Shown here piece by piece: positions 22,265 to 22,703 of a stretch of DNA of 64,000 bases. The stretch covers positions 26,220 through 90,219 of the forward strand of contig JABDJE010000215.1 in NCBI GenBank assembly GCA_013002625.1, in the 5' to 3' direction. The notes below the pieces were generated by a model that searched no databases, was not told the origin of the DNA, and worked only from the letters and a program-made list of their open reading frames with translations. Each line of letters opens with the position of its first letter. Position 1 is the stretch's first letter. The DNA is from Saprospiraceae bacterium (GTDB taxonomy: Bacteria; Bacteroidota; Bacteroidia; Chitinophagales; Saprospiraceae). The position numbers and the translations under genes are program-made.

Positions 22265-22308
22265 TCAGAGCATCCCGATACAATCGGGAGAGTCAAGAGT
22301 TCGAGTCT
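22265..22308 (+). repeat. tRNA-derived direct repeat, left copy (unit C)
   Basis: tcagagcatcccgatacaatcgggagagtcaagagttcgagtct is 44/44 identical to 22616-22659. It spans D-stem 3' strand, variant anticodon arm, variable loop and T stem-loop. Confidence 0.9.
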
Positions 22309-22327
22309 GACTTTGTCATAATAAGTC

Positions 22328-22609
22328 ATGCTAAGTCTAAGTGCATTTTTCTTTATTGGTATTGTGAAGTATTACCTATACATACTCTATTCTAAATCAC
22401 TTAACAGATATTACGTTGGACACACTAAAAATCTATCTGATAGATTATCAAAACATTTGGCAAATCATTCTGGGTTTACAGGGAAGGCCAAAGATTGGAT
22501 CTTGGTTTATAGTGAAGATTATCCGACTAAGCAAGATGCTTATCGTCGTGAACGCCAATTAAAATCTTGGAAGTCACGCTTAAAAATCGAAGACCTCATT
22601 GAACATTAG
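22328..22609 (+). CDS. small GIY-YIG nuclease family protein (COG2827/UPF0213-like)
   Basis: KYYLYILYS...[17 protein letters not shown]...RERQLKSW matches the GIY-YIG catalytic core. The true start is probably GTG 22364 (MKYYLYIL, 81 aa), because the 12 residues before it are hydrophobic junk. Confidence 0.8.
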
Positions 22610-22613
22610 TAAA

Positions 22614-22670
22614 GTTCAGAGCATCCCGATACAATCGGGAGAGTCAAGAGTTCGAGTCTCTCATCGCCCA
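22614..22670 (+). pseudogene. 5'-truncated tRNA-Val-like unit D (right repeat copy plus authentic acceptor 3' end)
   Basis: gttcagagca + tcccgatacaatcggga + gagtc aagag ttcgagt ctctc atcgccca. It lacks the acceptor 5' strand and most of the D arm. Confidence 0.85.
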
Positions 22671-22675
22671 CACAA

Positions 22676-22703
22676 AGCTCAGCAGGAATGCTGGGCTTTT
22701 TTT
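22676..22703 (+). terminator. duplicate of terminator T1
   Basis: Part of a 56-nt perfect duplication, 22648-22703 = 22184-22239. Confidence 0.8.

Follow-up and report, generated by a model that had tools for sequence, protein, structure and literature searches.

Bacteriophage T4 carries SegB, a free-standing GIY-YIG homing endonuclease located in its tRNA gene cluster. SegB is reported to be a precedent for a GIY-YIG enzyme that reads tRNA-gene DNA (the T-psi-C motif) and spreads itself together with the flanking tRNA genes (PMC2330249). Bacterial Slx1-like GIY-YIG domains are recurrently fused to, or placed in operons with, a COG4123 methyltransferase, in one case the partner is a TrmH-like SPOUT enzyme, and Slx1 has been linked to the maintenance of rDNA copy number (PMC1564403, a survey from 2006). 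Here we describe a locus in a 64-kb stretch of DNA (hereafter the window, to which positions refer unless a locus is named) from a metagenome-assembled genome of Saprospiraceae, where a very small GIY-YIG gene lies downstream of a tRNA-Val gene among altered partial copies of that tRNA. We read this locus as a degenerate two-unit copy of a cassette that is widespread in Bacteroidota and sits directly 3' of tRNA genes. In our estimate the odds are about even for the explanation that the cassette, which combines a nuclease gene with a hairpin, is recombination-driven and probably selfish.

One unit of the cassette consists of a promoterless GIY-YIG gene of about 80 aa, a partial tRNA copy carrying a substituted hairpin, and a copy of the tRNA 3' end and terminator. 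In the window the order from 5' to 3' is promoter, pseudo-tRNA piece A, genuine tRNA-Val, terminator, pseudo-tRNA piece C, a 55-nt leader, the open reading frame (ORF), pseudo-tRNA module D and a copy of the terminator, all on the forward strand. The tRNA-Val(TAC) gene at 22132-22207 is the one genuine tRNA called there by ARAGORN and Rfam (tRNA model, 67.2 bits), and the repeats around the ORF are not called as tRNA; it is followed by an intrinsic terminator with an 11-bp stem and a T run (22210-22239). Upstream, TATATTTG at 22042-22049 matches the Bacteroidota-type -7 box TAnnTTTG exactly and would act as the promoter of the tRNA-Val transcription unit; TATATTTGCAATCC around this box is kept upstream of the orthologous tRNA-Val in three relatives (L081, L082 and L085). 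Between box and tRNA-Val lies piece A (22066-22119), a 3'-truncated pseudo-tRNA-Val whose acceptor 5' strand and D arm equal those of the genuine tRNA and are followed by the hairpin TCCCGATATAATCGGGA (22094-22110), the variable loop, the first T-stem bases and CCAC-A8. Piece C (22240-22308) opens with 25 nt starting ATGCCT and continues through the D-stem 3' strand, the hairpin TCCCGATACAATCGGGA (22273-22289) and the variable loop into a T arm that ends abruptly after GAGTCT. The ORF occupies 22364-22609 (81 aa from a GTG; an alternative ATG at 22328 gives 93 aa). Behind it, module D (22614-22671) is a 5'-truncated pseudo-tRNA-Val, recognised from its repeats and its hairpin fold and called as tRNA by neither ARAGORN nor Rfam; it comprises a D-loop/D-stem remnant, the hairpin TCCCGATACAATCGGGA once more (22624-22640), the variable loop, the T arm and the acceptor 3' strand. 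The second terminator copy (22674-22703), identical to 22210-22239, closes the cassette.

An initial annotation, made from the sequence of the window, had drawn attention to the repeats, and its measurements hold: 22265-22308 equals 22616-22659 at 44 of 44 positions, 22648-22703 equals the tRNA-Val 3' end and terminator (22184-22239) at 56 of 56, and the peptide RVSHRPHKAQQECWAFF is present in two spurious ORFs. Both tRNA-derived repeats that it recognised are real, but the third tRNA-Val piece at 22066-22119 had been overlooked. The arm that it described as a variant arm does differ from the tRNA; it is in fact a perfect 7-bp palindromic hairpin closed by a loop of 3 nt (folding energy as DNA -6.5 kcal/mol, z=-5.9). 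This hairpin, TCCCGAT-N3-ATCGGGA, replaces the anticodon arm in all three pseudo-tRNA copies, and its arm occurs three times in the window against 0.07 expected. Module D belongs to a 90-nt repeat with 84% identity to the genuine tRNA-Val, the mismatches clustering in the anticodon arm. The right-hand repeat belongs to the element itself as its pseudo-tRNA module, and the left-hand one most likely goes back to an earlier unit in a tandem array, now truncated and without its ORF. A promoter box had also been suggested at the junction of repeat and unique sequence. The box TGACTTTG is indeed one mismatch from TAnnTTTG, but its true position is 22308-22315 and not 22307-22314, and the suggestion that it drives the ORF is a weak one, as there is no TTTG at -33 and no counterpart at other loci.

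The same arrangement recurs far beyond this genome. A family scan with a degenerate pattern, covering one genome per species, found at least 450 loci encoding relatives, and the best 80 of these were fetched with their flanks for locus statistics. All 80 are from Bacteroidota (Bacteroidales, Flavobacteriales, Chitinophagales including Saprospiraceae, Sphingobacteriales and Cytophagales). A genuine tRNA on the same strand ends 0-150 nt 5' of the ORF in 53 of the 80, and none of these loci has any tRNA on the opposite strand. The host tRNA is Val-TAC at 32 loci, Arg-TCT at 13, Pro-TGG at 4, and Met-CAT and Arg-ACG at 2 each. The general layout is tRNA, terminator, GIY-YIG ORF of about 80 aa, hairpin pseudo-tRNA and terminator copy; the module after the ORF comprises a D-arm remnant and the hairpin, followed by the variable loop, T arm, acceptor 3' strand and terminator of the upstream tRNA. 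The ORF starts 5-30 nt past the terminator, or 12-22 nt past the tRNA where there is no terminator between the two, as in L086 and L060. Tandem arrays are frequent: two or more ORFs stand in tandem at 19 of the 80 loci, in units of about 350 nt (344-360) that are 91-100% identical. For example, L026 consists of seven units of 344 nt and L047 of at least five units of 350 nt. Three contigs of Mucilaginibacter terrigena (L047, L048 and L054) are made of, or end in, arrays of an identical 350-nt unit, and the many matches at contig ends are expected from repeats that break assemblies. Even a distant branch (about 48% identity), on a GC-rich soil contig, has the same layout behind tRNA-Ala(GGC), with the hairpin TCCCGG-TGACAA-CCGGGA. 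The initial annotation was to fall if the arm recurred nowhere else, if all relatives shared one fixed arrangement and if other GIY-YIG copies stood apart from tRNA genes. Instead, the arm recurs widely across other genomes, the syntenic tRNA-Val is unoccupied in the relatives L081 and L082, and the family is systematically linked to tRNA genes, with tRNA-derived repeats on its flanks; the distribution of these sequences is therefore not one that speaks against it.

The hairpin is the most characteristic part of the module. Its consensus is (A)TCCCGA-Y...R-TCGGGA(G/C), exactly in place of the anticodon arm. An exact CCCGA-N3-11-TCGGG lies within -11 to +30 nt of the stop codon in 89 of 121 ORFs, and most of the others have one-mismatch or compensated versions. 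At loci selected by their ORF, 147 of 167 hairpins are no more than 400 nt from the ORF and only 2 seem unrelated. The sixth stem pair is T-A in 57 instances and C-G in 34, and doubly compensated stems are found as TTCCGA/TCGGAA (7 loci), TACCGA/TCGGTA, TCCCGT/ACGGGA and TCCCGC/GCGGGA. These substitutions point to a stem whose pairing is selected and kept by compensatory changes. Mismatched stems, inspected for wobble pairs as a check on the strand of action, are few and include both G-T and C-A types. The stem does not come from the host tRNA, for the anticodon arms of the genuine tRNAs nearby are quite unlike it. The loops measure 3 to 9 nt, some of them flipped, and often retain the host anticodon (TAC at Val-linked loci, TCT and one-base variants at Arg-linked ones). 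On the 5' side, the 12 nt flanking the hairpin are at least 90% identical to the neighbouring tRNA in 142 of 223 cases; on the 3' side, the 30 nt flanking it reach this level in 75 of 223, the others being truncated or disrupted. The direct repeats derived from tRNA agree with the tRNA at their own locus and are therefore best taken as duplications made on the spot, not as att sites carried in from elsewhere.

Some pseudo-tRNA copies are full-length and score 47-50 bits as tRNA. Rfam holds no dedicated family for the hairpin module, its matches being genuine tRNAs and two full-length copies in L006 that were scored as tRNA, while ARAGORN labels hairpin copies as tRNA-Stop, tRNA-??? or wrong isotypes. 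Two other readings of the stem were considered and rejected. A genuine tRNA with a CCCGA/TCGGG anticodon stem can be set aside, as all such ARAGORN calls have defective acceptor stems or odd anticodons. Sites of the TCNNGA type are those of Hpy188-type enzymes; the stem is not a restriction site of this kind, as the compensated forms TTCCGA, TACCGA and TCCCGT break the pattern. Pseudo-tRNA copies also commonly bear insertions in the T loop, right after GGTTCGAA (L005 and L006 at about 3300, L055, L066, L072, L073 and L203); in some cases the inserted sequence is a further TCCCGA...TCGGGA hairpin. L024 (2209-2620) and L161 have an additional hairpin in their D arm.

As had been stated at the outset, the GIY-YIG ORF is the sole real gene between the repeats. 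It matches Pfam PF01541 with 63.4 bits against a cut-off of 22.6 (E=2.4e-17), over profile positions 1-74 of 78. The alignment of homologues favours the start at GTG 22364 (81 aa), whereas the database record takes ATG 22328 (93 aa). An alignment of 28 homologues shows no variation at Y6, Y17, R27 and H31, and conservation of at least 90% at E63. An AlphaFold (AF2) model (pLDDT 88) has a three-stranded sheet and helices. In profile searches against the PDB the matches were 1zg2 (4.8e-9), 1ywl (1.8e-7) and Slx1 (3e-3), and Foldseek gave 1zg2 at 2.4e-5, Slx1 at 5e-3 to 4e-2 (TM about 0.65), I-TevI at 0.39 and UvrC at 0.75. The nearest solved relatives are the UPF0213 proteins BH0048 and EF2693, followed by Slx1 nuclease domains. 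The protein therefore belongs to the UPF0213/COG2827/Slx1-like branch, and not to the I-TevI/Seg or UvrC branches; the initial assignment to a UPF0213/COG2827-type catalytic domain is borne out by Pfam, the profile-PDB matches and Foldseek alike. The parallel that had been drawn with the Seg family, on the other hand, does not extend to membership. The 81-93 aa protein ends with its catalytic domain and has no C-terminal DNA-binding region of the homing-endonuclease type, its score against TIGR01453 (the group I intron/homing endonuclease model) is 19.4 bits, below the cut-off of 56.05, and its match to a PHROG 'homing endonuclease' profile reaches only E=1.6e-5 and covers part of 574 positions.

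The protein is intact and under purifying selection, with dN/dS of 0.08-0.15 within three clades. A profile search returned 2,645 clusters (50% identity) at E<=1e-10. The phage collection gave no matches, plasmids gave two, both weak and neither close, and IMG/VR gave three, each at a contig end, which suggests that these are host flanks of proviruses; no defence-system model in PADLOC matched. A phage, plasmid or defence-system origin was rejected on these grounds. Homologues have a variable C-terminal tail encoded by D-arm remnants, which is explained by the place of the stop codon: often it falls within what is left of the D loop, or within the loop of the hairpin. In a rough tree, the Arg-TCT-linked and the Pro-linked genes form clades nested among the Val-linked ones, and Met- and Arg-ACG-linked genes are scattered; this branching suggests a Val-linked ancestor, several switches of host tRNA and much vertical descent. 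Database ORF calls of relatives (P0023, P0028, P0033 and many profile-search entries) begin in the upstream tRNA or fuse two array units, which then give two matched stretches, and the N-terminus VAQLGARLDGIEEVVGSNPIG of some of these calls is translated tRNA-Ala; several calls from the distant branch start in this way.

The window holds a second GIY-YIG ORF on the minus strand (22860-23159, 99 aa from ATG; the longest ORF extends to 23201). It is a paralogue with 37% identity to the first (Pfam E=1.8e-13, with a weak T5orf172 match) and is convergent with it, its end lying 157 nt from the duplicated terminator, and no TCCCGA hairpin adjoins it. Other neighbouring genes encode Wzz, Wzy_C, polysaccharide, RNase E/G and YicC proteins. 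A domain search of the neighbour genes found no integrase or transposase within about 12 kb of the cassette, in agreement with what had first been noted, and a domain search of the window ORFs found no Slx4-type partner encoded nearby.

Some hairpin copies have no nuclease gene beside them. When metagenome contigs were scanned for GCATCCCGA-N5-9-TCGGGAGGGTC regardless of any ORF, at least 120 loci were found, with 165 hairpins among the matches listed, to which the following counts refer. A family ORF lies within 450 nt of 73 of the 165 hairpins, on the same strand in 73 of 73; 37 hairpins with at least 450 nt on either side have no ORF. These solo copies are partial duplicates of the adjacent genuine tRNA and come in two types, either 3'-truncated upstream of the tRNA, like piece A, or 5'-truncated with a terminator downstream of it. 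The former are sometimes arrayed with a leader (L024 and L060). Upstream truncated copies of the piece-A type are present at L008, L018, L024 (five in tandem), L060 (four in tandem) and L091; in the window, piece A correspondingly stands between the box TATATTTG (22042) and the genuine tRNA-Val. At least 12 tRNA species have solo copies beside them, Ala, Asn, Lys, Pro, Thr, Met and Val among them. A solo unit in L203 still has 14 nt from the start of the ORF, so deletion of the ORF is one way in which solos can form. By likeness to L203, the ATGCCT stretch of piece C is possibly a remnant of an ORF start, and piece C may have had the same origin.

Further solo copies were seen in other settings. 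Within rRNA operons there are partial tRNA-Ala(TGC) copies with the substituted hairpin, which adjoin tRNA-Ile and tRNA-Ala and have no GIY-YIG ORF close by (L091, L094, L121, L160, L194, L199 and L202). L208 (4538-5114), an IMG/VR contig classed as viral, carries four solo units, each made up of a hairpin pseudo-tRNA and a terminator, with a spacing of 112 nt among the first three.

Syntenic relatives of the window were reached via orthologues of the upstream Wzy_C gene. In L081 and L082 the conserved promoter box, tRNA-Val and terminator are present, and ORF, hairpin and pseudo-tRNA are all absent at the syntenic tRNA-Val. Other relatives have other occupants. At the orthologous tRNA-Val of L085 (Saprospiraceae; 4680-5100) there are two pseudo-tRNA-Val 3' parts with a different hairpin, TCACGCC-AAA-GGCGTGG and TCACGCC-TTT-GGCGTGG, the loop being flipped between neighbours, and a 66-aa GIY-YIG ORF of another subfamily follows them. 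This subfamily is also found behind tRNA-Lys(TTT) in L209 and L210. Looking for one hairpin per subfamily, we found TCACGCC...GGCGTGG in L085, TCCCGATA...TATCGGGA in L210 and none in L209. GIY-YIG genes of more than one subfamily behind tRNA genes, together with the empty sites, make the slot polymorphic. In L083 (4500-5203) the slot after Wzy_C contains a DUF559/Vsr-like endonuclease ORF (4581-4991) between 53-nt direct repeats that are 91% identical, and this occupant looks like another tiny nuclease cassette with a different fold.

Tyrosine integrase genes with Arm-DNA-bind_5, SAM_5 and Phage_integrase domains lie in L005 (1526-2752), L028 (1459-2748) and L077 (1538-2767), each immediately 5' of a native tRNA that has lost its 5' part and is followed by the GIY-YIG unit, and GGTTTACAC direct repeats are found near those of L005 and L077. 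The truncated native tRNAs of L005, L028, L044 and L077, which begin at the anticodon stem, were considered as products of nuclease cutting at position 26/27. This was rejected, as a tyrosine integrase stands beside three of the four, so they are ordinary attR fragments of unrelated islands.

From these observations we tentatively propose, with a probability of about 0.3, a new class of minimal mobile element. It would have an 80-aa Slx1-like nuclease as its only protein and, as its only cis site, a 7-bp hairpin put in place of the anticodon arm in copied tRNA genes, and would spread without integrase or transposase, by nuclease-triggered repair through D-arm/T-arm homology, in autonomous and hairpin-only forms; it would have colonised at least 12 tRNA species, including sites inside rRNA operons. 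The more general explanation given at the outset, for which the odds are about even, has the following mechanism. Read-through from the strong tRNA promoter would express the ORF, and the predicted nuclease would act on structured DNA at tRNA genes, cutting or nicking the hairpin itself or else a stem-loop of the tRNA gene. The break would be repaired via tRNA-derived homology, copying the hairpin, and the ORF if homology allows, into tRNA gene copies, and such repair could also expand or contract arrays. The tRNA-derived repeats would let units multiply into arrays or vanish by homologous recombination, and unit loss would leave ORF-less solo copies such as pieces A and C. Spread would thus be homing-like, RecA-type and integrase-free; units with both ORF and hairpin would be autonomous, and those with the hairpin alone non-autonomous.

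Several points weigh against this general explanation. The 81-aa catalytic core has no obvious means of reading sequence. The genuine tRNA beside the element shows no protective change (it is identical at 76 of 76 positions to the tRNA-Val of the empty-site relative L081), so a simple scheme of homing into native tRNA genes would also hit the element's own locus. Cutting of the hairpin would normally make the element the recipient of repair, and not the donor. A host-like D arm of up to 26 nt separates ORF and hairpin, which are thus not one contiguous foreign block. The empty sites are known from distant relatives, whose flanking protein is only 64-67% identical. Finally, the gene has resided vertically for a long time at one Ser-Pro-Arg tRNA cluster in Flavobacterium and Chryseobacterium, under strong purifying selection. 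This agrees better with a gene that is useful or addictive than with a homing endonuclease in decay, and so long a vertical history under constraint is as compatible with usefulness or addiction as with selfishness.

The alternative that survives best is a partnership at the RNA level, which we consider possible but doubtful. Here the protein would act on tRNA or tRNA-like RNA at the anticodon arm, the co-transcribed pseudo-tRNAs would serve as decoy, regulator or type III-like antitoxin, and the duplications would reflect selection for dosage. ORF and pseudo-tRNAs are always co-oriented with the tRNA in one unit, as the strand counts given above indicate, and L086 and L060 have no terminator between tRNA and ORF. 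The hairpin lies exactly in the frame of the anticodon arm, its loops often keep anticodon-loop features as well as the host anticodon, and the full-length copies score as tRNA; purifying selection and vertical persistence would also be accounted for. The association of Slx1-like GIY-YIG domains with tRNA-modification methyltransferases points in the same direction (PMC1564403). TrmN6/YfiC is the m6A37 methylase of tRNA-Val(UAC) (PMC4119055). That tRNA is the commonest host of the cassette. COG4123 is presumably this same TrmN6/YfiC family. Against an action on RNA, most pseudo-tRNAs have lost one acceptor strand and would be unable to fold as tRNA, the copies in the window are recognised by neither ARAGORN nor Rfam, loop length varies from 3 to 9 nt with occasional flips, and extra hairpins appear at T-loop and D-arm positions. 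Arrays of identical whole units and decaying solos resemble dynamics at the DNA level, and all GIY-YIG enzymes characterised to our knowledge are DNA nucleases.

Less probable still is a domesticated nuclease for the maintenance of the locus, which would process stalled forks or branched DNA at tRNA and rRNA loci, repeated and highly transcribed as these are, in the manner of Slx1-Slx4 at rDNA; the hairpin would be a programmed structure for channelling recombination between tRNA repeats, and the host would gain tRNA copy-number plasticity or repair. The closest solved folds include the domains of the structure-specific Slx1 nucleases, and Slx1 is tied to rDNA copy number (PMC1564403). Hairpin copies lie in tRNA clusters and within rRNA operons, and the gene is under purifying selection and has stayed at a single tRNA cluster in more than one genus. 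A maintenance role is, however, difficult to reconcile with the patchy distribution, the gene being wholly absent from close syntenic relatives; selfish DNA typically shows arrays such as those of the nuclease gene, copies in decay and a frequent loss of the ORF, and no Slx4-like partner is encoded nearby.

The reading first suggested for the locus, namely the scar of a tRNA-targeting integrative element in which the 44-nt repeats are att sites with a restored tRNA 3' end and the nuclease is cargo, is very improbable. Direct repeats of tRNA sequence do bracket a small gene, and tyrosine-integrase islands do use tRNA genes at such loci (L005, L028 and L077). But the geometry is wrong: the intact tRNA-Val lies upstream of both repeats, outside the pair, and is rebuilt by neither. 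No recombinase is at hand within the roughly 12 kb searched, the repeats always match the local tRNA and a lineage-specific terminator across at least five host tRNA species, and arrays of 344-360 nt units are unlike integrase products. In addition, the shared arm is foreign to tRNA, whereas the tRNA fragments made by integrases in L005, L028 and L077 keep their native anticodon arm. The integrase/att reading was rejected for these reasons. Coincidence, that is, neutral tandem duplication and decay of tRNA-Val around an unrelated ORF, is the least credible explanation, since tandem tRNA duplications, common as they are in bacteria, do not bring the same ORF family, hairpin and order to hundreds of loci across orders and beside different tRNAs, with a stem maintained by compensatory changes.

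We return to the probably selfish nuclease-plus-hairpin cassette. We place it among selfish nuclease genes that exploit tRNA genes, and it is apparently undescribed so far: no description of tRNA-linked UPF0213-type genes, of hairpin-substituted pseudo-tRNAs or of such arrays was found in the literature searched, a search with most subscription journals outside its coverage. If the proposal is true, selfish DNA would have a new means of using tRNA genes, in which a bare structure-specific nuclease is paired with a short hairpin and the arms that all tRNAs conserve serve as portable homology, in contrast to recombinases, which read the tRNA as an att site. The large UPF0213/YhbQ branch would gain a candidate substrate, a defined hairpin in a tRNA frame, and the cassette connects with the older, unexplained fusions of the UPF0213/Slx1 branch to tRNA methyltransferases. 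It also accounts for artefacts in Bacteroidota genomes, such as false tRNAs with odd anticodons in ARAGORN output (Stop, "???"), calls of GIY-YIG ORFs whose start falls within a tRNA, and contigs broken at tRNA genes, and it flags pseudo-tRNA insertions within rRNA operons.

Among described systems SegB comes close, in that both are GIY-YIG genes among tRNA genes that are present or absent between relatives, but the SegB abstract makes no mention of hairpin pseudo-tRNAs, tandem unit arrays or solo copies (PMC2330249). The cassette protein differs as a bare 81-aa catalytic core of the UPF0213/Slx1 branch, and the cassette is chromosomal and absent from the phage collection, whereas SegB is phage-borne. 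SegB is a larger protein with a DNA-binding region, and we know of no Seg gene with hairpin pseudo-tRNAs, unit arrays or solo copies. With the I-TevI, Seg and Mob homing endonucleases in general, the cassette shares presence or absence at a conserved site with an intact target (L081 and L082, at the flanking-protein identity given above). Sequence and structure match best to UPF0213/COG2827 proteins (BH0048, EF2693 and the E. coli YhbQ type) and the Slx1 domain, with conserved catalytic Tyr, Tyr, Arg, His and Glu; for the UPF0213 branch, tRNA-gene linkage, a pseudo-tRNA module and arrays were not found described in the literature searched, and Slx1 requires Slx4 and a RING domain, of which the cassette has neither.

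The tRNA-targeting integrative elements (tyrosine-integrase islands, prophages and NBU-type elements) resemble the cassette in their direct repeats of tRNA sequence and their duplicated tRNA 3' end. The cassette differs in lacking a recombinase and in having repeats that are local copies including the terminator, a foreign hairpin in place of the anticodon arm, an intact tRNA outside the repeats and tandem units of about 350 bp. As in REP/REPIN-RAYT systems, a short palindrome whose stem is kept through compensatory change outnumbers the small nuclease-type gene that accompanies it, about half of the hairpins among the matches listed being ORF-less. However, RAYT is an HUH/Y1 enzyme, whereas the cassette encodes a GIY-YIG protein and its gene is itself multi-copy, and REPs are scattered between genes, whereas the cassette hairpin is found only in tRNA-derived frames. 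Integron cassettes likewise combine a promoterless ORF with a hairpin site, arranged head to tail in one orientation behind a strong upstream promoter, but the units here all carry one and the same gene, neither an IntI integrase nor an attI site is present, and the hairpin spans 17-21 nt inside tRNA sequence. Finally, type III toxin-antitoxin systems of the ToxIN kind have tandem RNA repeats, a terminator and then a toxin gene, whose protein processes and binds the repeat RNA. In the cassette, pseudo-tRNA repeats, terminators and ORF share one orientation, the ORF usually coming first and the repeat second, and no PADLOC or other defence model matched.

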